49,380 nt of DNA from Patescibacteria group bacterium (GCA_038064075.1 JBBTTU010000002.1:1-49380), one strand, 5' to 3'; positions 30,751-49,380 are shown, numbered from the stretch's first letter. Notes: generated from the sequence alone by a model not told the origin. A program made the numbers and translations.

Positions 30751-31555
30751 CTATCTTTATTTTCCTAACTTGGGAGTCGGACTCCCAAGTTAGACAAGCC
30801 CAGTTTTCCAGCGTCAAATCTTCGGCACGGGCGGTTGGGGAAATGCCGCATTGATCAAAACTTTTAGCTTGTAACTTATAACTTTTCAGATTATTGCTTA
30901 ATGTTTTTCTTTTATGAGCAAAGCCGGTTTTAACAAGGTTGAAAAAGATTTTTTGGCTTATTTTGTTTTCTTTAAAAAAGTCGGGCACCCGTTTTTTAAG
31001 AACAATCACTGCCGAATCAACTTTTGGCCGGGGCCGAAAATAATTTTTAGACAAATAAAAAGCGATTTTCGGTTCGGCAAAAACCTGAACCGAGACAGCC
31101 AGTAAATTCATTTTCGGCCGGCCCATAATCCGCCGGGATACTTCTTTTTGCAGCATTAAAACATAAAGTTCAGCTTTGAGGGCAGAGCGTTTAGATGACG
31201 GATTGAGCAGTAAACGTAAGAGCCGGCCGGTAAGGTAATAAGGAATATTGGCAACGATTTTATCAGCTTTTAGTTTGGAAGCGCCGGTTTTTAGAAAATC
31301 GCGGATATCGGAATGTATTAAAATCAAGCGGCCGGCTTTGATAAATTCCGCGAATTTCCGGTCCAAAAAATTGAAAAGTTCGGCGTCTTTTTCAACCGCG
31401 ATCGTTTTTTTGGCTTTTTTGAGGATTTCTCCGGTTAAAATTCCTTTGCCCGGTCCGATTTCCAGAACAAAGTCGTTTTTATCAATATCGGCGGCTTTGA
31501 CCATTTTGGCGGCAACGGATTTTGAAGTTAGAAAATGCTGGCCAAGTTTTGTCAT
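30743..31555 (-). CDS. rsmA: 16S rRNA (adenine1518/1519-N6)-dimethyltransferase RsmA/KsgA
   Basis: 270 aa. LGQHFLTSKSV and VLEIGPGKGILT SAM motif. Confidence 0.9.
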   Translation of the reverse strand: MTKLGQHFLTSKSVAAKMVKAADIDKNDFVLEIGPGKGILTGEILKKAKKTIAVEKDAELFNFLDRKFAEFIKAGRLILIHSDIRDFLKTGASKLKADKIVANIPYYLTGRLLRLLLNPSSKRSALKAELYVLMLQKEVSRRIMGRPKMNLLAVSVQVFAEPKIAFYLSKNYFRPRPKVDSAVIVLKKRVPDFFKENKISQKIFFNLVKTGFAHKRKTLSNNLKSYKLQAKSFDQCGISPTARAEDLTLENWACLTWESDSQVRKIKIVE

Positions 31556-33489
31556 AATTCAATAATTTTTTCTTTGCCGGCCGAGTTTATCAGTTCAAAC
31601 GGAATATCTTGCAGGAATCTGGAAGGCATATTTGCCTGTTTTTCGCCGAAAATAGTGCGCAAGAGCGCCAAAGACAAGAAAACTTTTTTGCGGGCGCGCG
31701 TCAGCGCGACATAAAAAAGCCGGCGTTCCTCTTCTATTCTGGTTTTTTCAGCGTCCCCGCCGATTGCCGAATGAGGAAAAAGCCCGTCTTCCAGTCCGGC
31801 AATGAAGACATTGTCAAATTCCAAGCCTTTGGCGGCATGAACCGTGGTTAAAGGCACTCCCCTTTTTTTTAAGTCTGGCGCGTCGGATTCCGACATCAGC
31901 GCCGCTTCTTCCAGAATTTTAAGCAGGCCCTCGGGCGCTTTTAAGCCGTCAAAACGGCGGGCCAGCGCCGCCAATTCTTTGATATTGGCAATGCGCATCA
32001 GGTCTTCTTCAATTTTCGGATCAAAAATATCAAGGTAGCCGCTTTTTTGGATGGCGCTGGCAACGGCTTTTGAAGCCGGAAGCCGGGTTGCGCCGGTTTT
32101 GATTTCAGCCAGGACCGTTTCAAAATTACGGATTTTTTTCTGTTCGGCATCGCTCAATTTTGATCCTGAAAAATAGCGGGCCGTCAAAACCTTGCCGATT
32201 TCTCTGGATGGGACATTAATGATTCTTTTTTTGCTGATCAAATCGCCGGAATTAAGGGCTGAACGAAGATATGCCAGGATATCCTTGATTTCTTTCCGGG
32301 CGTAAAATTTGACTCCGACGACGTAGTACGGAATCTCGTATGCCAGAAATTTTTCTTCCAAAACCCGCGATTGGAAATTAGCCCGGAAAAGCACTGCCGT
32401 TTCGTTCGGTTTATGGCCGGATTCAATCAGATTTTTTGTTTTGTCGGCGATAAATTCGGCTTCTTCATCTTCGCTTCCGGCGACGAACAATTCCAGTTTT
32501 TCTCCGCCGGTTTGCCGGGTAAACAAGTTTTTCGGTTTTCGCAGTTTGTTTTTGGCAATAACCGCGTTGGCGGCGTCCAAAATCGGCCTTAGCGAGCGGT
32601 AATTTTCTTCAAGAGTGATGATTTTTGCCCCCGGCCAGTCAGATTCAAATTTTAAAATATTTCTGAAATCGGCGCCGCGGAAAGAATAAATTGATTGATC
32701 CATGTCCCCGACAACGCAGATATTTGAATGTTTGGCGGCAAGCATATTGGCCAGCCGGTATTGAACCGAATCAGTGTCCTGATATTCGTCAATGTTTATA
32801 AATTGCCACTGTTCTTGATATTTGGCTAAAATATCTGGACGCTTTTCAAAAAGCGCCGCCGTTTTGACCAAAAGATCGTCAAAATCAAGCGACTGGGCCG
32901 TTCGCAGTTTTTCTTCGTAAATCCGCCGGATTTGGGCTAAAATTTTAAGAAAATAATTGTCAGCTTCGTTTTCCAAATCGTCTATCTTTATCAGATCGCC
33001 TTTTTGGCGCGAAATAATGTTTTTTATTTTGGACGGTTGGAATTGTTTAGGGTCAAGAATCAGTTCTTTTATTGCTTCTTTGACGAGAGCCAGCGAGTCT
33101 TCTTCATCAAGGATTGTAAAATGTTTGGCCAGCCCGGCAGCCTTATATTCCTGCCTTAATATAGCCGCTCCCAAGGAGTGAAATGTGCCGATCCATGGCA
33201 TAACATCTTTTAGCCCTTCGGCCCGAGTTCGGGACGAAGGCTGATAGCTGTCAGCTTGTAGAAGTTTAAAGATGCGTTCGCGCATTTCGCCGGCGGCCTT
33301 ATTGGTGAATGTCACGGCTAGAATTCGGTTCGGCGCGCAGCCTCGACTGATAAGATGGGCGATGCGATGGGTTAAAACCTTGGTTTTTCCGGATCCAGCG
33401 CCGGCAATAATCAAAAGCGGGCCGGTTTGATGCAAAACCGCCTCTTTTTGGGCCTTATTAAGATGATTTAAAGCATTTAAATTTGACAC
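31552..33489 (-). CDS. UvrD/PcrA-type superfamily 1 DNA helicase
   Basis: LNKAQKEAV...IIAGAGSGKT Walker A and IDEYQDT. Start moved to GTG 33489 (MSNLNALNHLNKAQ). The upstream 44 codons overlap promoter elements and the divergent gene. Confidence 0.9.
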   Translation of the reverse strand: MSNLNALNHLNKAQKEAVLHQTGPLLIIAGAGSGKTKVLTHRIAHLISRGCAPNRILAVTFTNKAAGEMRERIFKLLQADSYQPSSRTRAEGLKDVMPWIGTFHSLGAAILRQEYKAAGLAKHFTILDEEDSLALVKEAIKELILDPKQFQPSKIKNIISRQKGDLIKIDDLENEADNYFLKILAQIRRIYEEKLRTAQSLDFDDLLVKTAALFEKRPDILAKYQEQWQFINIDEYQDTDSVQYRLANMLAAKHSNICVVGDMDQSIYSFRGADFRNILKFESDWPGAKIITLEENYRSLRPILDAANAVIAKNKLRKPKNLFTRQTGGEKLELFVAGSEDEEAEFIADKTKNLIESGHKPNETAVLFRANFQSRVLEEKFLAYEIPYYVVGVKFYARKEIKDILAYLRSALNSGDLISKKRIINVPSREIGKVLTARYFSGSKLSDAEQKKIRNFETVLAEIKTGATRLPASKAVASAIQKSGYLDIFDPKIEEDLMRIANIKELAALARRFDGLKAPEGLLKILEEAALMSESDAPDLKKRGVPLTTVHAAKGLEFDNVFIAGLEDGLFPHSAIGGDAEKTRIEEERRLFYVALTRARKKVFLSLALLRTIFGEKQANMPSRFLQDIPFELINSAGKEKIIEL

Positions 33490-33498
33490 ATTGATCAA

Positions 33499-33507
33499 AT
33501 TATAGCA
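33499..33507 (-). promoter_or_regulatory. Extended -10 element TGCTATAAT for uvrD/pcrA (minus strand)
   Basis: Only 9 nt separate the hexamer from GTG 33489, which implies a leaderless or near-leaderless mRNA. Confidence 0.4.
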
Positions 33508-33517
33508 TTTTTTGGGC

Positions 33518-33526
33518 TGTGGATAA
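33518..33526 (-). promoter_or_regulatory. Perfect DnaA-box consensus (TTATCCACA on minus strand)
   Basis: TGTGGATAA on the + strand, overlapping the expected -35 position of the uvrD promoter. Confidence 0.4.
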
Positions 33527-33541
33527 ATCGTTGTTGCCGGA

Positions 33542-33570
33542 TTGACTTTCGGCCTTGGCAGGGCTAGTAT
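33542..33570 (+). promoter_or_regulatory. Sigma-70-like promoter TTGACT-17-TAGTAT
   Basis: TTGACT 33542-33547, a 17-nt spacer, then TAGTAT 33565-33570. Points at the LysM/M23 gene. Confidence 0.4.
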
Positions 33571-34730
33571 TAAATAGAACCGCAAGCTTAGCGGTTTCTT
33601 TATTACAGAAAGGCCGAGCAAGTCCGTTTTCCTTTAATTTAAACCTTATTTTAGAAATATACGAATGTTCTGCCGATCAATCTCAAAGATCCGGCAAGAA
33701 CTATATAAAACCTTTTAAGAAACTTTTTTGGCCAAAGAACCTTTTGGTCATTGGTTTTGTTTTTGGCTTGTTTTTAGCCGCCGTTTCTCCGGCCGAAGCC
33801 GGCATTTTTAATATAATTAAAAATATTTTTAAATCCGAGGTTCAAGTCGAGACCGCTGCGGTTTTCAACATCCAGAATATGCCGCTTTTGGATGCTCCGA
33901 CCAATATTGATCCTTTGGCCGGCACCGGCGGCGGTGAAATAAATATTGTTCAGAATAACGCTCTTTTGCCGGTCACCGGACCGATGGGCAGCATTGCCGA
34001 TATTGATGTTAACGCCAAAAATAACAGTCAAATTTCAGTGTATATTGTGCGCGACAAAGATAATCTTTCAAGCATTGCCAAAATGTTCGGAGTTTCGGTC
34101 AATACTATTATTTGGGCCAATGATCTTAAACGCGGCGATCTGATCACTCCCGGCCAGACTTTGATCATTCTTCCGGTTTCGGGCGTCCAATATGTTGTCA
34201 AAGACGGCGATACTTTGCCGGCTATTGCCAAAAAGTTTAAAGGCGATGTTGACGAAATCATTAATTTTAATGACTTGCCGGCCAGCGGCCCGCTGGCAGC
34301 CGGCCAGACTATTGTTATTCCAAATGGAGAATCATATCTGATTGCGACTCCTTCGCGTTTGCTCGGCGGCGGCGGACCAAGCTATAGCGGTTATTATATC
34401 CGGCCGGTTGCCGGCGGACGAAAAAGCCAGGGACTTCACGGCTATAACGGCGTAGACTTGGCTGACTACTGCGGAGCTCCGGTTGTCGCTTCGGCTTCGG
34501 GCGACGTGATTGTCAGCCGGACTTACGGCTGGAACGGCGGATACGGGCTTTATGTCGTGCTTAATCATCTTAATAACACTCAGACTCTTTACGCTCATTT
34601 GAGCAAAATTGCGGTGCAAAGCGGCTGGCATGTGGTTCAGGGACAGGTGATCGGCTACATCGGTTCAACCGGCAATTCCACTGGCTGCCACGTTCATTTT
34701 GAGGTTCGCGGCGCGAAAAATACTATTTAA
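33555..34730 (+). CDS. LysM-domain M23 family metallopeptidase (start uncertain)
   Basis: Two LysM-like segments (YIVRDKDNLSSIAKMFGVSVNTIIWAN; YVVKDGDTLPAIAKKF). M23 motifs HGYNGVDLA and GNSTGCHVHFEVR. The listed TTG 33555 lies inside the predicted promoter. In-frame TTG 33744 would give MVIGFVFGLFLAAVSPAEA. Confidence 0.8.
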   Translation: MAGLVLNRTASLAVSLLQKGRASPFSFNLNLILEIYECSADQSQRSGKNYIKPFKKLFWPKNLLVIGFVFGLFLAAVSPAEAGIFNIIKNIFKSEVQVETAAVFNIQNMPLLDAPTNIDPLAGTGGGEINIVQNNALLPVTGPMGSIADIDVNAKNNSQISVYIVRDKDNLSSIAKMFGVSVNTIIWANDLKRGDLITPGQTLIILPVSGVQYVVKDGDTLPAIAKKFKGDVDEIINFNDLPASGPLAAGQTIVIPNGESYLIATPSRLLGGGGPSYSGYYIRPVAGGRKSQGLHGYNGVDLADYCGAPVVASASGDVIVSRTYGWNGGYGLYVVLNHLNNTQTLYAHLSKIAVQSGWHVVQGQVIGYIGSTGNSTGCHVHFEVRGAKNTI

Positions 34731-34747
34731 GTTAGTGTCGCAAAATT

Positions 34748-36265
34748 TTAAAAATTAGTTTTTGGCCGATATTGCAAAGCTTCGTTAATATGGCTTTCTT
34801 TTATTTCGGTGTCGCCTTCCAAATCAGCAATTGTCCGCGAGATTTTAATGATTCGGTGATAAGCTCGCGGCGAAAGATCCAAATGTTTGGCGGCCTGATT
34901 TAAAATATTGCGAGCCGACAGCGAAAGCGGCGCGGTTTTTTCCAAATCTCTGATGCCCATTTCGCTGTTGGTCAAAAGTCCTTGGCCGTCCAGCCTTTCT
35001 TTTTGACGCCGGCGGGCGGCAATAATCATATTTCTGATTTCATCCGAGACCGGTTTGGCCGGCTCTTTGCCCAATTCTTCGTGTTTAATATTGCCAACCT
35101 CCATCCATAAATCGATGCGGTCGGCGATCGGGCCTGAAATTTTGCGCTGATAGCGGAATAAAGACGACGGAGTGCAAAGGCACATTTTGGTCTTTGATCC
35201 GAGATTTCCGCAGGGGCAGGGATTCATGGCGCCGACCAGCATGAACCTTGCCGGAAATTTAATGGTGCCGCGCGATCGCGAAATCGTTACCACGCCGTCT
35301 TCCAGCGGCTGGCGGAGCGATTCAACCACCCGGCGGTCAAATTCCGGAAATTCGTCAAGAAACAATACGCCGCGGTGGGCCAGCGTCACCTCGCCGGGTT
35401 TGGGCCAGGCTCCGCCGCCGACCAAAGCGACATAAGACGAAGTGTGATGCGGACTGCGGAAAGGGCGCCGGCTGGCAAACGAGCCGTCCAATATTCCGAC
35501 AACACTTTGAATCGCCGTAACTTCCAGAGCTTCTTCTTGAGAAAGAGGAGGCAGAATTGAAGGCAGGGTCCTGGCCAGAATTGTTTTGCCGGTGCCGGGC
35601 GGCCCGGACATCAGGATATTGTGTCCGCCGGCCGCGGCAATGGTCAAAGCCCGTTTGGCCGCTTCCTGGCCGCGGATATCGGCCAGATCATATTTTATTT
35701 CGGCCGCGGCTGATTTTATTTGAGTTTTAGGCATAATTTTAAGCGCGGTTTCGCCGGACAGATGTTTTAAGACTTCGGTCAAGTTTTTGGCTTCAAAGAC
35801 TTTGCAGTTTTTAACAACAGCCGCTTCGCGACCATTGCCTTCGGGAACAAAAATTTCTTTAAAACCTTCGCTTCGCGCTTTTTGCGAAAGCGCTAAAACC
35901 CCTTTTATCGGCCGCAGCAGGCCGTCTAAAGCCAGTTCGCCCAGGAAAATTTTGTCGCCGGTTTCAAATTTTGCCTGTTTGGACGCCAAAATATAACCAA
36001 GGGCGATTGCCAGATCAAAGCCGGTTCCCTTTTTTTTAATGTCAGCCGGCGCCAGAGACACTATGACTTTTTGATTTTGCTTATGAGGGGGTTTGAGTCC
36101 GATGTTTTTTATGGCGTAGGATATCCGTTCTTTGGCTTCATCAACTTCTTTGTCAGCCAACCCGACAATACTAAAAGAACGAAGTCCTTTTGAATAGTCA
36201 ACTTCAACGTCAATTATTTTGCCTTCAAGCCCAATCGTTTCAGCCGCGTGGAGTTTTACCGCCAT
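34748..36265 (-). CDS. comM: YifB/ComM Mg-chelatase-family AAA+ ATPase
   Basis: 505 aa. Walker A GPPGTGKT, LFLDEFPEF, and an N-terminal Lon-like domain. Confidence 0.9.
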   Translation of the reverse strand: MAVKLHAAETIGLEGKIIDVEVDYSKGLRSFSIVGLADKEVDEAKERISYAIKNIGLKPPHKQNQKVIVSLAPADIKKKGTGFDLAIALGYILASKQAKFETGDKIFLGELALDGLLRPIKGVLALSQKARSEGFKEIFVPEGNGREAAVVKNCKVFEAKNLTEVLKHLSGETALKIMPKTQIKSAAAEIKYDLADIRGQEAAKRALTIAAAGGHNILMSGPPGTGKTILARTLPSILPPLSQEEALEVTAIQSVVGILDGSFASRRPFRSPHHTSSYVALVGGGAWPKPGEVTLAHRGVLFLDEFPEFDRRVVESLRQPLEDGVVTISRSRGTIKFPARFMLVGAMNPCPCGNLGSKTKMCLCTPSSLFRYQRKISGPIADRIDLWMEVGNIKHEELGKEPAKPVSDEIRNMIIAARRRQKERLDGQGLLTNSEMGIRDLEKTAPLSLSARNILNQAAKHLDLSPRAYHRIIKISRTIADLEGDTEIKESHINEALQYRPKTNF

Positions 36266-36276
36266 ATCGCTAAATT

Positions 36277-36639
36277 TCAGTTTTTGGAGTGTTCAACGCA
36301 GGTTTTGGCCGCCGGATCAGCCTCAAGCCTTTCCGGGCTGATCGGTTTTTGATCGGTCTCGCAAAGGCCGTAAGTTCCGGCTTCAATTTTTTTAAGCGCG
36401 GCGTTGACCTCGTTTAATCTTAATTCCAAAGCGACTTCGCGGCCGGCGGTGTTTTCAAATTCTTCAAAAAGATCGGCCATTTCGCTGGCTTCGGACTGCT
36501 GGGTGTTCAAATCCGGCTGGATCGGCATCCAGTTTTTTGGGTTTTCGGGATTGCGTTTGGCAATCATCTTCAGCTGGCGTTCTAGCGCTTCCCGTTCTTC
36601 TTCCAATTTTTTATGAAAATAGTTCAAGTCTACGGTCAT
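36277..36639 (-). CDS. DksA/TraR-family protein (zinc finger partly degenerate)
   Basis: 120 aa. N-terminal coiled coil. C-terminal YGLCETDQKPISPERLEADPAAKTCVEH has only two of the four usual Cys. Confidence 0.55.
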   Translation of the reverse strand: MTVDLNYFHKKLEEEREALERQLKMIAKRNPENPKNWMPIQPDLNTQQSEASEMADLFEEFENTAGREVALELRLNEVNAALKKIEAGTYGLCETDQKPISPERLEADPAAKTCVEHSKN

Positions 36640-36655
36640 AGGACTATATTATACC

Positions 36656-36706
36656 TTAAATTACGAAATGCCGTAAAATGCGGAGGATGGGTATTTCGTA
36701 ATTTAA
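36656..36706. repeat. 14-bp perfect inverted repeat with 23-nt spacer
   Basis: TTAAATTACGAAAT (36656-36669) / ATTTCGTAATTTAA (36693-36706), between two minus-strand genes. Confidence 0.6.
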
Positions 36707-36720
36707 AGATATATAACTAA

Positions 36721-37608
36721 TTATTGCTGGATGAAAAGCGAAAGCTGTTTGATTGCGGCTTCAAAAGCCGCCGGCGACTGGGCGAGAATAAGGATCCGGC
36801 GGTTAAAAACCGCGTAGGCTAAAATGATTTCATCTTTTCTGTTTTTCAGGATTCGGGCATCATGGTTGGCGATTGTCAGGTCTTGAAAATTATTATCGCC
36901 GCGATCAAGCCCGATTTCGCTTGAAAGCAGATCGGCTAGGGCTTTCGGCAGGCTTTTTTCCCAAGCCAGCATTCCGGCAAAAGCCTCTGAGTATGATTTT
37001 ATCTCAAAAATAAAGACCGATTCGGTTCCGCGCGGCGTATCCATTATTCCCAAGTTCATCCGGCCACCCAGACTGTTTAAAAGAAATGGCGGCAAAGGCG
37101 CTTTGATCAGGCGAAAAAAATCTCCGGCTTCCAGAAATTTATTTTGTTCGGCGTCAAAAATATGAATAGCCGCAAATTCGCGGGGCAGAAGTTTCAGTCC
37201 GAAAATTTCTTTCCATTGGCCAAGAAAAAGATTGAGGTCTGATCCGGCGATTTCAATGATTTTTTCTTGTTTGGCCGGGATAAAGAGCGCGGGATTGGCC
37301 GGTTTAACGATTGCCGGCTGATTTAAAGTTTTTCTCAGCCAAAAAGCGCCAAACCCGGCCAAAGTCAAAATTAAAATCAAAGCCGCCAGATACAGCGCCG
37401 GCCGGAATTTATTCAGCCATGATTCTTCATAAGTTTCAGTCTCTTTTTTGGATCTTTGGGCCAAAAGTTCGGCCAGTGAAATTTTTTTGCCTTTTAAATA
37501 TTCCTGAACATCGCCGACCATTGTCCGGACAGACGGCTTTGGAGGTTCGGCTGGCAACTCTTCTTTTTTCGTTTCCTCGTTTTTAAGATTCTCGGCCATT
37601 TTTTCCAT
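36721..37608 (-). CDS. Membrane-anchored hypothetical protein
   Basis: Start placed at Met22 (alternative Met25 at 37599). One TM helix (ALYLAALILILTLAGFGAFWL). The 5' end overlaps the pnp 3' end. Confidence 0.5.
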   Translation of the reverse strand: MEKMAENLKNEETKKEELPAEPPKPSVRTMVGDVQEYLKGKKISLAELLAQRSKKETETYEESWLNKFRPALYLAALILILTLAGFGAFWLRKTLNQPAIVKPANPALFIPAKQEKIIEIAGSDLNLFLGQWKEIFGLKLLPREFAAIHIFDAEQNKFLEAGDFFRLIKAPLPPFLLNSLGGRMNLGIMDTPRGTESVFIFEIKSYSEAFAGMLAWEKSLPKALADLLSSEIGLDRGDNNFQDLTIANHDARILKNRKDEIILAYAVFNRRILILAQSPAAFEAAIKQLSLFIQQ

Positions 37609-44336: not shown

Positions 44337-44473
44337 ATGTCAAGTACCCCTTTTTTAGTAAATAATCTAAACTTACAAAATCTGCTTGTTTTTTTATTGA
44401 TATTTTTGCTATATTAAATCTAAATAGAGTTAGTTTGTTATTTTGAAAATTTTTATTGAAAGGAGGGGGAATA

Positions 44474-45265
44474 ATGAAAAACTTAAAGATTTTATTGTTG
44501 TTTGTTTTAGTATTGTTGGTATTTTTTTATGCCGGATTGGCAGCAGCGCAAGACGCGGAAGAAAAGGAAGAAGAAGAGATTATCTGGAAAAATCCTTTGC
44601 CTAAAATGCTTCAGCAAATGAAGCATAGGGCGGAAGAAACCTTGGAAAAACTAAAAAGTTTTGACTTTTTTTATGATTTTAATAACATTTCCTCACAAGT
44701 GTTAGATGTTTTGGTAAAGGAATTGGATGAAGAAATAAACAATTGCCCATCAGATGCGGATGTTTTGTTAAAAAAGAGAAACCTGGTTATTAAATTAGCT
44801 GGAATTCTTTACGAATATGAAAAATATATTTTCTTCTTTCAACAGGGAGAAGAATATATAAACAAATTAAAAGAGCTTGATTGGGTGATTCATTATCACG
44901 ATCCAACTGTTTTTTTAAAAACCTTGAGTCAATTTTATGATTCAAGGTACAGGTTTCAATTAGATAAAGAGCTAAATATAAATTTTGATAGAATAGTTAT
45001 ATTTAGTTCCTCCAATGATATTGAATTTCCGAATTCCCTTGTTACGGGAATTATAAAATATGATAATACAGAAAAAGAGAAGTTAAGAGAAGATATAGTA
45101 GGTTTTTATTTTCGGGGTTATCTTAATAATCCCGAATCTATATTAAATTCAGAGATTTTTGAGCTTCGCTGGTTGGACAGCGAAGGCAAAAAACATATTG
45201 TATGGCATTATATAATGCCATACCCTTTTCCGATTTTAACAGTGGTAAAAAATTCTCTTTATTAA
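44474..45265 (+). CDS. Secreted hypothetical protein
   Basis: Start at ATG 44474, behind the AGGAGGGGG Shine-Dalgarno. Signal peptide MKNLKILLLFVLVLLVFFYAGLAAA. No family recognised. Confidence 0.6.
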   Translation: MKNLKILLLFVLVLLVFFYAGLAAAQDAEEKEEEEIIWKNPLPKMLQQMKHRAEETLEKLKSFDFFYDFNNISSQVLDVLVKELDEEINNCPSDADVLLKKRNLVIKLAGILYEYEKYIFFFQQGEEYINKLKELDWVIHYHDPTVFLKTLSQFYDSRYRFQLDKELNINFDRIVIFSSSNDIEFPNSLVTGIIKYDNTEKEKLREDIVGFYFRGYLNNPESILNSEIFELRWLDSEGKKHIVWHYIMPYPFPILTVVKNSLY

Positions 45266-45270
45266 TTATT

Positions 45271-45314
45271 CCCAAGGGGCTTCCTCGGGGAGTTTCCCGA
45301 GGAAGCCCCTCGGG
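45271..45314. repeat. REP-like palindrome doublet (two inverted units)
   Basis: CCCAAGGGGCTTCCTCGGGG-AGTTT-CCCGAGGAAGCCCCTCGGG. Each unit is itself a 7-bp-stem hairpin (CCCGAGG/CCTCGGG). Lies between convergent genes. Confidence 0.75.
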
Positions 45315-45352
45315 AAAAGATAAAAAGCTGCTTTTTTTAAAAAAAGCAGCTT

Positions 45353-46150
45353 TTAAATTGCGTCGGTTATTTCAATTGGAATAACCGGTCCATTTTTTGG
45401 AAAATCCATCGGTTTTTCATCGTTTTCGCTTCCGGGAAAGAGCCAAAAATAAAATTTCTTGGCATCATTGAGTTTTGGCTTTTTTGGGAAGCCGTAATAT
45501 TTTTTTTGCATCTCCTCATCATAGAGTCCGATGCAGCCGTGAGAATCGGGGTAGCCGGGCAGATCGCGGCCGTGAATCCAAAAAGCCGTTCCTTTTTTAT
45601 CCACATAAAATTTAATTGCCCAAGTCATCGGATAAGGGATATTGGTTTTCTCTATTTTATAAAGAGAGGAACGATGGTTTTTATCGCGCCCCAATACTTT
45701 AAAAATCCCTTTTGGCATAAAATGGCCTTTGCGGCCGGAAGTTATAGGTAGAAAAAATTGCAACTCACCGAATTCGTAAGCGCCCAAAAACTGTTCTTTT
45801 AGATTGATTAGCGTATATTTTGGATAATTTTTCGCTTTTTCCAGATTTTTCGGCAGTCCGCCGTGAAAATCTTTTATTGATTCTAAATCCCGCGGCGCTT
45901 TCAAATGTTTTCCTGGCCAAACATGGCGCCGATCAATCCTGTTAAAGCGAAGAATCGCCTCATAATTCTCTCCAAAAAGACTTTCCAGGGTTTCACCTTT
46001 TTGTATTCTGTGGCATTCGTATTCTATCAGTTTGTCGCTCGGAAAAACCGGAAAACACGAATTTTGCGGCTTTTTCTGATTTTGAGCGAAAACAGAAGAA
46101 TAAAAGGCAAATAAAAAATTAAATGCCAATAGAAATTTCCATCTCTTCAT
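45353..46150 (-). CDS. LysM + YkuD-type L,D-transpeptidase
   Basis: Signal peptide, a LysM-like segment (HRIQKGETLESLFGENYEAILRFNRI), and the catalytic HGRDLPGYPDSHGCIGL. Confidence 0.75.
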   Translation of the reverse strand: MKRWKFLLAFNFLFAFYSSVFAQNQKKPQNSCFPVFPSDKLIEYECHRIQKGETLESLFGENYEAILRFNRIDRRHVWPGKHLKAPRDLESIKDFHGGLPKNLEKAKNYPKYTLINLKEQFLGAYEFGELQFFLPITSGRKGHFMPKGIFKVLGRDKNHRSSLYKIEKTNIPYPMTWAIKFYVDKKGTAFWIHGRDLPGYPDSHGCIGLYDEEMQKKYYGFPKKPKLNDAKKFYFWLFPGSENDEKPMDFPKNGPVIPIEITDAI

Positions 46151-46257
46151 TTTTTCACCTGTTTTAAATTTAAAAGAACTGATTGATTTTTTATTTTGTT
46201 ATTTATTATATCATAAATAGAATTTTCTCCGCGATTATTAATTATTGCATAAAATTC

Positions 46258-46278
46258 CCGTAAAATTCCCGAGGGGGC
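46258..46278. repeat. REP-like palindrome unit
   Basis: CCCGAGGGGGCTTCCTCGGGG, in the divergent intergenic region ~38 nt before the transposase left hairpin. Confidence 0.75.
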
Positions 46279-46315
46279 TTCCTCGGGGAAAGAAGATATC
46301 CACAGAAGAGATTTC

Positions 46316-47025
46316 CCCTAGGACCGTCCTAGGGTGTATAATATCTATATGTACCGCAAATTTGAATTTTCTGAAAATGAATTTTATCATTTATATAATC
46401 GCGGCAATGATAAAAGAACCGTTTTTTTGGACGATAATGATAGAAAGCGGTTTATAAAATTATTGTTTCTCGCCAACAATAATAACCCTATTAATCTTCG
46501 GGATATTCCCCTAGGACGGTCCTTTGTAGAAATGGAAAGGGGACAAACTATTGTGGATATTGGCGCTTATTGCTTAATGCCGAATCATTTTCATTTGCTT
46601 GTTTGCGAGAAAAAAGAAGGCGGAATCAGTAATTTTATGAAAAAATTATGCACTTCCCACTCAATGTATTTTAATATGAAATATGGAAGAACTGGTTCTC
46701 TTTTTGAAGGCGTATTCAAGGCTGAACATGCGGAAAAAGATGAATATTTAGAATATCTGTTCGCTTATATTCATTTGAATCCGATTAAATTGATTGAGCC
46801 GGAGTGGTATGAAAAAGGATTGTCCGATACGGATAAAGCTAAAAAATTCTTGGAAAATTACAGATATTCAAGTTACCCGGACTACATTGGCGAGAGTCGG
46901 CCGGAAACGGCGATTCTTAATAAAAACGCGTTTTCAGGATATTTTGAGAATCAGAAAGAGTTTAAAGATTACATTAATGACTGGCTTAATTATCAAAAGG
47001 TTAATACATAGGACCGTCCTATGTA
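46316..47025 (+). mobile_element. IS200/IS605-like or RAYT unit (~710 bp) bounded by related palindromes
   Basis: Left CCCTAGGACCGTCCTAGGG (46316-46334) and right TACATAGGACCGTCCTATGTA (47005-47025) share the 13-mer TAGGACCGTCCTA. A single Y1 transposase gene fills the interval. Confidence 0.6.
46349..47011 (+). CDS. Y1 (HUH) tyrosine transposase, IS200-like / REP-associated (RAYT-like)
   Basis: 220 aa from ATG 46349. HUH motif CLMPNHFHLLV and Tyr motif FAYIHLNPIK. Confidence 0.75.
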   Translation: MYRKFEFSENEFYHLYNRGNDKRTVFLDDNDRKRFIKLLFLANNNNPINLRDIPLGRSFVEMERGQTIVDIGAYCLMPNHFHLLVCEKKEGGISNFMKKLCTSHSMYFNMKYGRTGSLFEGVFKAEHAEKDEYLEYLFAYIHLNPIKLIEPEWYEKGLSDTDKAKKFLENYRYSSYPDYIGESRPETAILNKNAFSGYFENQKEFKDYINDWLNYQKVNT

Positions 47026-47065
47026 GTAAGGTTTGAAGAAATTTTAGGCGTGCTAAAATAAAATT

Positions 47066-47236
47066 ATGTTGAATAACAAAAAAACGAAGTTTGTTGTCGG
47101 AATTATCGCTATTATTATAATAATTGTTTTGGCTTGGTTTTACGGTTTGCCGAAATATCAGAACTGGCAAGAGTGGAAAAATATCAAAAAACAAGCGGAG
47201 GAATTTGAAAAAATAAAGAAGGAACGAATTGATTAA
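47066..47236 (+). CDS. Small single-TM protein (56 aa, hypothetical)
   Basis: ORF not in the supplied track: MLNNKKTKFVVGIIAIIIIIVLAWFYGLPKYQNWQEWKNIKKQAEEFEKIKKERID. Confidence 0.35.
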   Translation: MLNNKKTKFVVGIIAIIIIIVLAWFYGLPKYQNWQEWKNIKKQAEEFEKIKKERID

Positions 47237-47248
47237 TTATTTTTAAAA

Positions 47249-47746
47249 ATGAATATCAAAAATCCAATAATAAAAAAAGTGTTAATAATCATTCTTATTC
47301 CGCTTGCTATATTTTTATTACTGATTATTTATACTGCCGGAAAAAACATCTGGGGGGGATACAAATGGCAGAAAGCGACTGAAGAATTTCAAGAATCATT
47401 GGAGCGGCCGTACAAGGAAGATGTTTACGGAGGCAAGACACCGGAGGAAACTTGGACGATGTTTTTAGATACCTTAAAGAAAGGTGATTTGGAATTGGCG
47501 AGCAAGTATTATGATGCGGGGCATCAAGATAAAGCAAAAGAATGGCTGGAGAAATTAAAACAAAATGATGAATTGGAACAGACTATTAAGGAGATGGAGG
47601 GATTGAGAAAGAGTGAAAGAAAATCTTTGGAAAATCAAGCCAATTATTACTATAATTATTACGACCAAGAATTTAAGCAGGAGCTTTCTAGTATTATAAT
47701 TTTTTATTTCAACCCATACACCAAAGTCTGGAAAATAATCTGGTAA
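47249..47746 (+). CDS. N-terminally anchored hypothetical protein
   Basis: 165 aa with TM helix VLIIILIPLAIFLLLIIYTA. No family recognised. Confidence 0.5.
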   Translation: MNIKNPIIKKVLIIILIPLAIFLLLIIYTAGKNIWGGYKWQKATEEFQESLERPYKEDVYGGKTPEETWTMFLDTLKKGDLELASKYYDAGHQDKAKEWLEKLKQNDELEQTIKEMEGLRKSERKSLENQANYYYNYYDQEFKQELSSIIIFYFNPYTKVWKIIW

Positions 47747-47752
47747 TTTAAA

Positions 47753-49380
47753 ATGAGCAAGAGTTTTTTGAAATTTTTAATAAAGATCAATATTTATCTT
47801 ATTCTTTTTAGCGCATCTGTTTTTGCTCTTCATTTTGTTTTGGCTTATTCACCATACAACACCCATCCGGCGCTGACCGAAGAAATGGCTAATTTCTTTA
47901 ATATCAAGAATCAAAACAAATTATCCGATCAGAATATTGGATGGATGATGGAGGGTTCAATAAACGAAGACCAGGCACCAAGATGGATTAACCATTTTTA
48001 CGATCCAATTCATAATGAAGGATGGAAAGGAAAACACTTTGGCAATTTATCCGAAGAACAAGGTTATAAAATTGGGGCGGATGTCGCGCCTAAAGAAGCA
48101 ATTACTTCTTTAGATTGGGCAATAAATCAAGAATATCAGTCAGCTTATGGTAGACAGTTTGGCAATCAAACCTGGCAAAAAGCCATAAAGTCATACATTG
48201 ACGGAGATAAAAAGTCCGCTTTTATCGCTCTCGGACATATTCTCCATTTAATTGAAGATGCGAGTGTTCCTGATCATACGCGCAATGATACCCACGCTGA
48301 TTTTTACGGCGATCCTGGTTCTCCGTATGAAGATTATGCAAAAGAATATACTAATTTTAATGAATTAACAGTTGCCGTTGATTTAGTACAAGAGAATAAA
48401 GATTTATTGACGTTTCAAAGCCTTGCTCAAGCTTTTGATTATTTGGCTGATTATTCCAATAAAAATTTCTTTTCTGAAGATACAATAAGTAATAAAGAAT
48501 TTGTGGAGCCGGATTTGGAAAAATTACGAAAGAATACAAAAGAATTAGGAAATGAAAAAATTATATTTTTATATAATTCAAACACTGGATATTATATTGC
48601 TTTTTTAGATAATAAAACAAAAAATTATTCTGTAAACGATACAAAATTTATCCTCCCTTCCTATCGCATCCATCTCTTCCCTCAAGCGGTCCTCATCGGC
48701 GCAAGCGTAATAGATTTATTTTTCAGAGAAGCGGAGCGTTATCAAAATAATGAAGAATCTATTGAAGTTCTTTCTGACCAAAACGAGTCTTTGTTACAAA
48801 CATTAAAACACACTCCTAAACTTGCTGTTCTTAATATTGCTGATTTTTATGACAGAAATGCGACCAAACTGGAAGTAGTGGTGATAAAAACATATCAGCT
48901 CGCGAAAAATACGATCAAAAACATCTCTTTAAAAATTTATCCAAAAATCGTCTTGCCCGAATCCCAACTTGCGATTATTTCTCCGCCAAAAGAAACAATT
49001 CCGATATCGGATACTGAACAATTTTTGTTCCCCGAGGAAGCCCCTCGGGGGGAAAGTTCGACTTTGGCGGATTTGTCTGAATTACAAATAACTCTTGATG
49101 AAGCAAAAGCGCGAGTCGCGGTTTTGGAAAAGCAAGTAGCTGAAATCGCGCAAATCGTGCAAGCTCAAGCTCAAGCGCGAGCCCAATCTCAATCTCAAGC
49201 GCAAGCACAAGTGCGACAAAACAACAATTTGGAGACTAAGTCTCCAAGTGCGGCAAAAGCGGCAAATAATTTTGCCGCTCTCCCTTACGCTGGCTTTGGC
49301 GGGGGAGCGGCGCCGTCAGACGCGGCGCCAACGGAAAACGCGACCAACACTTCCAGCTCAACTTCGGTTGAGCTTTTTGT
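47753..49380 (+). CDS. Zinc-dependent phospholipase C-like domain protein with low-complexity C-terminal region; 3' end beyond window
   Basis: Not in the supplied track (no stop in the window). I translated it codon by codon from ATG 47753 and found no stop to 49380. Signal/TM N-terminus, HPALTEEMANFF and ALGHILHLIEDASVPDHTRND His/Asp motifs. Confidence 0.6.
   Translation, partial: MSKSFLKFLIKINIYLILFSASVFALHFVLAYSPYNTHPALTEEMANFFNIKNQNKLSDQNIGWMMEGSINEDQAPRWINHFYDPIHNEGWKGKHFGNLSEEQGYKIGADVAPKEAITSLDWAINQEYQSAYGRQFGNQTWQKAIKSYIDGDKKSAFIALGHILHLIEDASVPDHTRNDTHADFYGDPGSPYEDYAKEYTNFNELTVAVDLVQENKDLLTFQSLAQAFDYLADYSNKNFFSEDTISNKEFVEPDLEKLRKNTKELGNEKIIFLYNSNTGYYIAFLDNKTKNYSVNDTKFILPSYRIHLFPQAVLIGASVIDLFFREAERYQNNEESIEVLSDQNESLLQTLKHTPKLAVLNIADFYDRNATKLEVVVIKTYQLAKNTIKNISLKIYPKIVLPESQLAIISPPKETIPISDTEQFLFPEEAPRGESSTLADLSELQITLDEAKARVAVLEKQVAEIAQIVQAQAQARAQSQSQAQAQVRQNNNLETKSPSAAKAANNFAALPYAGFGGGAAPSDAAPTENATNTSSSTSVELF
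49030..49050. repeat. REP-like palindrome unit inside a CDS
   Basis: CCCCGAGGAAGCCCCTCGGGG, in frame, encoding part of FPEEAPRGES. Confidence 0.75.
49160..49210 (+). repeat. Imperfect hexanucleotide tandem repeat (CAAGCN/CAATCT) encoding a QA/QS repeat
   Basis: CAAGCTCAAGCTCAAGCGCGAGCCCAATCTCAATCTCAAGCGCAAGCACAA translates to QAQAQARAQSQSQAQAQ. Confidence 0.7.

Follow-up and report, generated by a model that had tools for sequence, protein, structure and literature searches.

We found that the last 4 kb of a 49,380-nt contig from a Patescibacteria group bacterium (GCA_038064075.1 JBBTTU010000002.1:1-49380; this whole stretch is called the window) contains short GC-rich hairpins, here type A, that are real members of a small mobile family of Patescibacteria. 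The family resembles the repetitive extragenic palindromes (REPs) and their inverted doublets (REPINs), and it is tied to a gene for a Y1/HUH protein resembling the REP-associated tyrosine transposases (RAYTs). We put at roughly 0.72 the probability that type-A hairpins are REP/REPIN-like units moved by a RAYT-like Y1 enzyme, and that in this lineage the gene for that enzyme (Y1_A) was swapped for a diverged allele (Y1_B), leaving the copies in the window orphaned. Proliferated families of these hairpins reside in a sister species and in a sister genus.

The type-A hairpin is CCCGAGG-AAGCC-CCTCGGG, with a 7-bp stem and a 5-nt loop. The four copies reported in a preliminary description of this DNA were all recovered (45271-45289, 45296-45314, 46268-46287 and 49031-49049). 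A scan of the window gave exact matches to the 19-mer CCCGAGGAAGCCCCTCGGG at 45296-45314 and 49031-49049. With up to 2 mismatches allowed, the stem pattern gave 4 matches in the window (0.09 expected from 100 shuffles), one of which is a palindrome of a second type, type B, at 46316-46334. Two type-A units make up a compact inverted doublet, the left half on the (-) strand (45271-45289; CCCAAGG-GGCTT-CCTCGGG, with one A/C mismatch in the stem) and the right half on the (+) strand (45296-45314; CCCGAGG-AAGCC-CCTCGGG). The doublet is located, as had been described, between convergent open reading frames (ORFs) at 44456-45265 (+) and 45353-46150 (-), and has the (-)(+) layout of a REPIN. Folded as single-stranded DNA (ssDNA), positions 45271-45314 form one long REPIN-like hairpin (-24.3 kcal/mol; z = -6.9).

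The two other type-A units are single. One (46268-46287, (-); CCCGAGG-GGGCTT-CCTCGGG) lies between a divergently oriented YkuD-like (L,D-transpeptidase-type) gene and the Y1 gene, 61 nt before the ATG of the latter, and is the distal arm of an inverted pair of hairpins upstream of the Y1 gene. The site had been described correctly, but the coordinates given for it (46258-46278) were 10 nt too far left and its loop is 6 nt. The other (49030-49050, (+)) has an 8-bp stem (CCCCGAGG-AAGCC-CCTCGGGG) and does lie inside a coding sequence. It is in frame in an open ORF (47753-49378), where the unit is read as FPEEAPRG, in a variable region past the conserved N-terminal domain; the unit is at residue ~426, beyond the part of this ORF to which orthologs can be aligned (residues ~17-373). 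The stems are 7-8 bp and G+C-rich, as in the short, stable ssDNA hairpins of REPs and REPINs. L104, L105 and L106, which are independently assembled from the same population, have type-A units too, so these are not an assembly artefact.

The Y1/HUH gene in the window (46349-47011, (+); allele Y1_B) is directly bracketed by type B, not by type A. Type B is the palindrome CCCTAGGA-ccg-TCCTAGGG. The proximal upstream hairpin of the gene is a type-B unit (46316-46334, (+)), separated from the distal type-A unit by a spacer (46288-46315; GAAAGAAGATATCCACAGAAGAGATTT). The downstream hairpin (47005-47033, (+); CATAGGACCGTCCTATG then TAGTAAGGTT; z -4.9) is a type-B unit that extends over the TAG stop codon. 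A degenerate type-B copy (46509-46524, (-); CCCTAGGACGGTCCTT) lies inside the gene, at nt ~163 of the coding sequence, where the variable loop RDIPLGRSF is encoded; it now folds poorly as a hairpin (z -0.1). One further type-B copy is in a 5' untranslated region on contig C28 of the window's genome (G000). Between types A and B, 13 of 19 positions agree and one stem pair has changed in a compensatory way (G-C to T-A), so the two behave as subfamilies of one repeat. Because the flanks and the internal site of Y1_B carry type B, the adjacent gene is probably not the one whose enzyme spread the type-A units. Of the pairing of hairpins and adjacent gene that had been proposed, the kinship with REP/RAYT systems is supported, but a role of Y1_B as the spreader of type A is not. 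A TATAAT sequence (46337-46342) is located just 7 nt before the ATG of Y1_B, and the proximal type-B hairpin overlaps the -35/spacer region; this arrangement suggests a leaderless transcript and possible autoregulation.

Other versions of the locus are present in the same aquifer. When metagenome contigs were scanned for exact matches, type A turned up on 12 contigs, which come from the same aquifer samples. Contig L146 has the same locus, with the same upstream sequence and the same downstream 56-aa ORF, in the order A(-), the spacer found in the window, A(+), an intact Y1_A, and A(+) in the last codons of Y1_A. Y1_A and Y1_B are 61% identical in amino acid sequence, and an A-like copy lies inside Y1_A. 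The window and L146 cease to be homologous at the foot of the proximal hairpin. Contig L132, which is 96.7% identical to window 44380-46238, has type A at all four of the window positions, including the doublet and the unit in the coding sequence. At the Y1 locus it has A(-), a spacer, A(+), a stub of Y1_A that is limited to the first 22 codons, an unrelated ORF of 196 aa and a downstream A unit. The distal unit (46268-46287) is in the same position and orientation in L146, in L132 and in the orthologous loci of two sister-genus genomes (G001 and G004). Hairpin copies flank a RAYT-like gene, the arrangement known as a REPtron: in the window the distal unit does so, and in L146 and L132 type A is on both sides of Y1_A. 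Judged from these sequences, the most economical reading is that the locus was originally a type-A REPtron whose hairpin-gene-hairpin segment was later exchanged for a type-B allele. The type-A units of the window would then be inherited relics, probably orphaned by the loss of Y1_A.

The haplotypes differ in other ways. The spacer of L132 (9798-9825) is the exact reverse complement of window 46288-46315 and of the L146 spacer, indicating an inversion between the hairpin arms. The 196-aa ORF that replaces most of the Y1 gene in L132 (10098-10688) encodes a secreted-looking protein with an HELGH (HExxH) motif. In the strain variant L105, window 44496-45366 is replaced, with sharp boundaries, by an allele that is ~75% identical; this locus is a recombination hot spot. 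The replacement covers a whole 269-aa ORF and the intergenic region. At the site of the doublet, L105 has a 27-nt type-B unit that is identical (27/27) to the type-B unit downstream of the Y1 gene.

We found evidence of type-A mobility in a sister species, for which the available genome is incomplete. Its contig L135 is syntenic with 30881-37146 of the window (contig C2 of G000). Between ksgA-like and uvrD-like genes, L135 has a type-A unit as a 36-nt spacer, whereas the two genes overlap by 4 nt in G000. Its UvrD/PcrA-like helicase contains an in-frame type-A unit (SKIPRGFLG) where the G000 protein has a 6-residue gap. These filled and empty sites, and the replacement of the doublet by a type-B unit in L105, are the kind of evidence for mobility that is expected of REPs and REPINs. 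Comparison of the sequences indicates that type A inserts, or is precisely lost, between genes as well as in frame within coding sequence. Since type A occurs in frame in the helicase of L135, the in-frame copy at 49031 is unsurprising.

The family is far larger in the sister genus, which belongs to the same family and is represented by G001 and G004 (~0.7 Mb each). Both have an orthologous Y1 gene (55-56% identity to that of the window) and share one order: a reverse and then a forward hairpin separated by a spacer, the gene, which has a hairpin in frame inside it (nt ~163), and a second forward hairpin. The hairpin is CCCGAGG-ACTCC-CCTCGGG in G004 and CCCAAAGG-ACTAC-CCTTTGGG in G001. Allowing up to 3 mismatches, we found 34 dispersed copies in G004 and 55 in G001, on many contigs; reversed-pattern controls gave 2 and 0, respectively. 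The copies that we inspected were mostly (-)(+) doublets of 45-75 nt without any gene fragment. Some were compact like that of the window (G004 C17:6126-6170, and in G001), and others were ~75 nt.

In the window's own genome the picture is different. G000 is an assembly of 558 kb in 32 contigs (44% G+C), and the window is the whole of contig C2 (49,380 bp). Type A has 4 copies, which occupy 3 sites within 3.8 kb, and a decayed one elsewhere (C27:15665-15683), and no further intact copy was found in the rest of the 558-kb assembly. Dispersed, mostly extragenic copies in the tens to hundreds per genome, as is usual for REPs and REPINs, were thus not found in G000; G001 and G004 do reach such numbers. 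A genome-wide REP family in G000 was rejected: a listing of all GC-rich perfect hairpins gave no family of more than 4 members. A genome-wide count had been proposed in the preliminary description, which took confinement of the palindrome to this locus, together with grouping of the transposase with ordinary IS200 TnpA, as grounds for abandoning the idea. Near-confinement is what we see in G000, next to 34 and 55 homologous copies in G004 and G001; grouping with IS200 TnpA is contradicted by motif, fold and NCBIfam.

Matching between gene and hairpin extends across the phylum. We examined 80 loci. In 44 of them, a perfect and GC-rich hairpin lies no more than 130 nt upstream of the Y1 gene. 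The same hairpin core recurred after the stop codon in 33 of these 44 (33/80 of the loci sampled) and inside the gene, at nt ~100-300, in 13 of the 44. Cores borrowed from other loci recurred at 1.8% downstream and 0.7% internally. Intact internal copies at the position equivalent to that in the window were found in G001, G004 and L108. The Y1 family is present in 80 of the 301 genomes sampled in the phylum (27%), in 1-8 copies each and never with internal stops, and it has over 7,900 proteins across Patescibacteria.

Analyses of the protein support placing Y1_B with the RAYT-type (class 2 TnpA-Y1) proteins and not with IS200 TnpA, as judged from published motif signatures, NCBIfam and a predicted fold; the preliminary description had made the same assignment. 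Y1_B (220 aa) matches PF01797 (Y1_Tnp) with 33.8 bits (cutoff 23). It has the HuH motif NHFH (H80, H82), the tyrosine motif YIHLNP (Y140), a YSSY tail and a helical C-terminal domain of ~80 aa. NHFH and YIHLNP, followed by the YSSY motif, are invariant among 24 aligned homologs, and NH[FI]H is present in 80/80 of the related loci checked, none of which has internal stops. Class 2 (TnpA-REP-like) proteins are defined by Y---NP and IS200 TnpA by Y---Q (Quentin et al. 2018, PMC6006769). The only NCBIfam match to Y1_B at E <= 1 is the RayT model NF047646 (REP_Tyr_transpos, equivalog). The AlphaFold (AF2) model of Y1_B (pLDDT 81) has as its top PDB fold match 4ER8, the E. coli RAYT-REP complex (E = 7.6e-5; TM(target) 0.62), which is the only match with E <= 0.001; IS608, ISDra2 and IS200 TnpA come next. 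When PDB was searched by sequence, neither Y1_B nor a profile of 24 sequences reached RAYT or IS608. The nearest protein homologs are annotated as Patescibacteria, Niyogibacteria and Nomurabacteria, and many are on 1-2 kb contigs.

The distribution of the gene is also that of a RAYT, that is, low in copy number, without near-identical duplicates and inherited vertically. G000 has three Y1 paralogs that are 31% identical as proteins, and pairs within one genome elsewhere are 61-67% identical in nucleotides. The same large gene adjoins the Y1 gene in G000, G001 and G003, a synteny that spans three genera. By motif matching only, Y1_B (NHFH, YIHLNP, YSSY, 220 aa) agrees with subclass 2.1 (Bertels' RAYT group 1, TIRYT), for which the signature is NH[YF]H, Y[IV]HLNP, an SS tail and a median of ~238 aa (PMC6006769, Table 1). 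Subclass 1.1 (IS200/IS605 TnpA) is described as having Y[IV]ENQ, a core-only protein of ~150 aa and multiple near-identical genomic copies (PMC6006769, Table 1). Y1_B, with YIHLNP, 220 aa including a conserved tail and no duplicates, has none of these.

Motifs resembling DnaA boxes accompany some of the hairpins. In the spacer upstream of Y1_B, ATATCCACA (46297-46305) shares 8 of its 9 letters with TTATCCACA, the DnaA-box consensus. Spacers of the ~75-nt doublets of the sister genus hold two inverted TTATCCAC(A) motifs. Near-consensus inverted DnaA boxes (TGTGGATAA / GTTATCCAC) are located at the hairpin feet of ~75-nt doublets in L014 (G001:C8), in L015, L001, L003 and L012 (G004), and in L117. 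Upstream of the Y1 gene, DnaA-box-like 9-mers are modestly enriched across the 80 loci (0.76 vs 0.32 per kb, or about 2-4 fold). A doubtful but interesting possibility is that the boxes in the sister-genus doublets couple the repeats to replication initiation or to DnaA titration. Prompted by the TTATCCAC motifs and the literature on subclass 2.1, we considered the C-terminal domain of Y1 as a helix-turn-helix (HTH) domain binding DnaA boxes, and this was not supported. Among 24 members there was no Pfam match to Bac_DnaA_C, HTH_23 or HTH_28 in this domain at E <= 5. Modelled alone (pLDDT 80), the domain had no PDB match better than E = 2.8 and no fold like DnaA domain IV.

Based on these results, we propose the following. 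The locus would be a REPtron consisting of a distal hairpin (-), a spacer, a proximal hairpin (+), a Y1 gene with an internal copy and a downstream hairpin (+). Each Y1 enzyme would recognize its own hairpin and move either single units or inverted doublets. If it works like IS608 TnpA and the E. coli RAYT, the dimeric enzyme would bind the hairpin on ssDNA and cleave at the hairpin foot using Tyr140 and a HuH-bound metal, and the strands would then be rejoined. An ancestral Y1_A specific for type A may have seeded type-A units between genes as well as in frame within coding regions. In G000, the segment from the proximal hairpin through the gene would later have been exchanged for the diverged Y1_B, which brought its own type-B hairpins.

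Several points weigh against this proposal. The families in G000 (5 type A, 4 type B) are far below classical REP counts. The 5' GT[AG]G guide tetranucleotide was not found at the hairpin feet; the type-A flanks read tt-CCC...GGG-(g)aaag, and the only GTAG sequences lie 3' of the type-B unit that follows the gene (47021-47024) and within the spacer of a single G004 doublet. Y1_B scores 36.4 bits against NF047646, below the cutoff of 80. The subclass that it most resembles, 2.1, is the one for which REP-like sequences near the gene were reported to be absent (PMC6006769). The direction of the swap, from A to B, is a parsimony argument. We infer the binding and cleavage of the hairpins by Y1 enzymes by analogy. 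And hairpins that bracket the gene are also what an IS200-like element would have.

This last point leads to a different explanation, that the gene and its two hairpins are an insertion sequence (IS) of the IS200/IS605 type (~710 bp: hairpin, tnpA, hairpin) and that the scattered hairpins are solo ends or scars of excision or insertion. Most family members do have identical hairpins just before the ATG and at the stop, the haplotypes differ in the hairpin-bounded segment, many homologs are on contigs of only 1-2 kb, and the TnpA proteins of IS608 and ISDra2 are the next-best fold matches. We nevertheless consider an IS unlikely. Near-identical gene copies within a genome are absent, the paralogs having diverged to the extent given above, and the gene is syntenic in three genera. 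The protein has Y---NP instead of Y---Q and, at 220 aa, includes a C-terminal domain. The dispersed elements of G001 and G004 are 45-75-nt doublets lacking any gene fragment, and single 19-nt units are found in frame in coding sequence. A further idea is that the pair of hairpins around the Y1 gene is a slot for site-specific exchange whose content would be swapped by Y1 enzymes that cut and rejoin DNA at the hairpin feet, somewhat similar to a one-cassette integron that uses ssDNA hairpins. Three contents are seen between the hairpins at this locus, Y1_B, Y1_A, and a Y1_A stub with the gene for the 196-aa HExxH protein, and the upstream spacer can be inverted as well; we regard the idea as doubtful.

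Two other explanations would dispense with transposition or with the Y1 gene altogether. The palindromes might be double-stranded operators for a dimeric regulator, possibly Y1 itself as an autoregulator, and the extra copies would then be further regulatory sites. Many palindromes in the family are perfect and odd-length with a 1-3-nt centre, as operators for a dimer would be, and the proximal copy overlaps the -35/spacer region of the likely Y1_B promoter. Operators would not account for copies in unrelated coding regions, for 36-nt fillers between otherwise overlapping genes, or for 34-55 inverted-doublet copies in the sister genomes. The invariant HuH and Tyr motifs in 24 homologs, and NH[FI]H at all 80 loci, argue for retained nuclease chemistry, and this explanation appears quite improbable. 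The hairpins might instead act in RNA, as terminators or as stem-loops that stabilize or process mRNA, having arisen locally and being unrelated to the Y1 gene. REPs of E. coli stabilize upstream mRNA, and the doublet lies between convergent genes. However, no unit is followed by a T-run, one unit is in a divergent promoter region and one is in coding sequence. A separate canonical terminator, AT-rich, bidirectional and outside the repeat family, adjoins the doublet (45323-45354), so the doublet is not needed for termination. We therefore rejected a terminator role for type A, in agreement with the preliminary description, which had argued that the units were not simple terminators. No Rfam family reached threshold for the hairpins. 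In addition, the type of hairpin changes together with the adjacent Y1 allele from one haplotype or genome to another. Together, position and co-variation largely refute an origin at the RNA level, which we judge highly improbable.

Among the closest characterized systems are REPtrons, for example E. coli RayT/YafM with REPs in bacterial interspersed mosaic elements (REP-BIME; 4ER8) and the RAYT-REPIN systems of Pseudomonas (Bertels and Rainey 2011, PMC3116915; Quentin et al. 2018, PMC6006769). As in REPtrons, GC-rich hairpins occur singly and as inverted doublets and flank a low-copy, syntenic Y1/HUH gene. The hairpin family is specific to the gene and has subfamilies within a genome, the enzyme has Y---NP and 4ER8 as its top fold match, and copies are found in frame in genes. 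Unlike in REPtrons, the stems are perfect and short and lack the 5' GT[AG]G guide. Copies number 5 here and 34-55 in relatives, not hundreds, although G001 has a comparable density per Mb. The protein is 220 aa long, has a distinct C-terminal domain and is under the NCBIfam cutoff for RayT, and the host is from Patescibacteria.

The protein resembles subclass 2.1 in being ~220-240 aa long and encoded at low copy number, and in having NH[YF]H / Y[IV]HLNP, an SS motif (here YSSY) in its proximal tail and an additional C-terminal domain. In contrast to that subclass, reported to be REP-free, the palindrome is repeated past the stop at 33 of the 44 loci that have a hairpin upstream, G001 and G004 harbour dispersed families, and the C-terminal domain has no similarity to Bac_DnaA_C or HTH_23/28. 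Subclass 2.4, from Cyanobacteria and Bacteroidetes, has REP copies in frame inside the tnpA-REP gene (PMC6006769, section 12). The loci described here likewise have the cognate hairpin in frame within the gene of the enzyme, in a variable surface region. They differ in the internal copy, which has a fixed place ahead of the HuH motif (nt ~150-175). The motifs also differ, being NH[IFV]H / YIxNNP in subclass 2.4, and the REPs of that subclass have GT[AG]G feet. With IS200/IS605 elements (IS608, ISDra2; subclass 1.1) they share the Y1/HUH fold, hairpins by both ends of the gene and, presumably, cleavage of ssDNA hairpins by a tyrosine. The differences from these elements are the Y---NP motif (vs Y---Q), the length (220 vs ~150 aa), the lack of tnpB and of multiple near-identical copies, and the syntenic location. 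Furthermore, both end hairpins are the same perfect palindrome, unlike the distinct, imperfect left and right ends of IS200/IS605.

REP/RAYT systems are regarded as belonging mostly to Proteobacteria and a small number of other phyla. The preliminary description had suggested that they were undescribed in the candidate phyla radiation (CPR), and our full-text literature search likewise found no paper tying REP/RAYT to Patescibacteria or CPR. Our results indicate a REP/RAYT-type system in Patescibacteria, with an enzyme activity presumed by analogy to its relatives. A Y1 family found throughout Patescibacteria brings gene-specific hairpins with it, and these reach REP-like densities in some 0.7-Mb genomes despite extreme streamlining. 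The aquifer population amounts to a natural experiment, with three REPtron haplotypes in one population (an allele swap, a gene loss in which the hairpins were kept, and a spacer flip). These haplotypes, and the filled and empty sites including the helicase insertions, provide concrete material for tests of how hairpins are selected and moved by Y1 enzymes. The hairpins also matter for annotation of CPR genomes: they break short-read assemblies and add short in-frame peptides. A break of this kind is seen in G004, where a contig stops within the hairpin that follows the Y1 gene (C13:24252-24270, at the end of L015) and the ortholog of the neighbouring gene is on C10.

The other two Y1 paralogs of G000 have private palindromes around and inside the gene. 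These are TCACTTGGGAGT-cgg-ACTCCCAAGTGA and AACTTGGCCAC-cag-GTGGCCAAGTT for the genes at C6:42166-42753 (-) and C9:11635-12273 (+), respectively. Near the end of the window, a hexanucleotide repeat encoding QA/QS (49150-49201) differs in length among strains, with deletions of 21 nt and 12 nt in L105. All assemblies of the population stop within about 35 nt of window position 49380.

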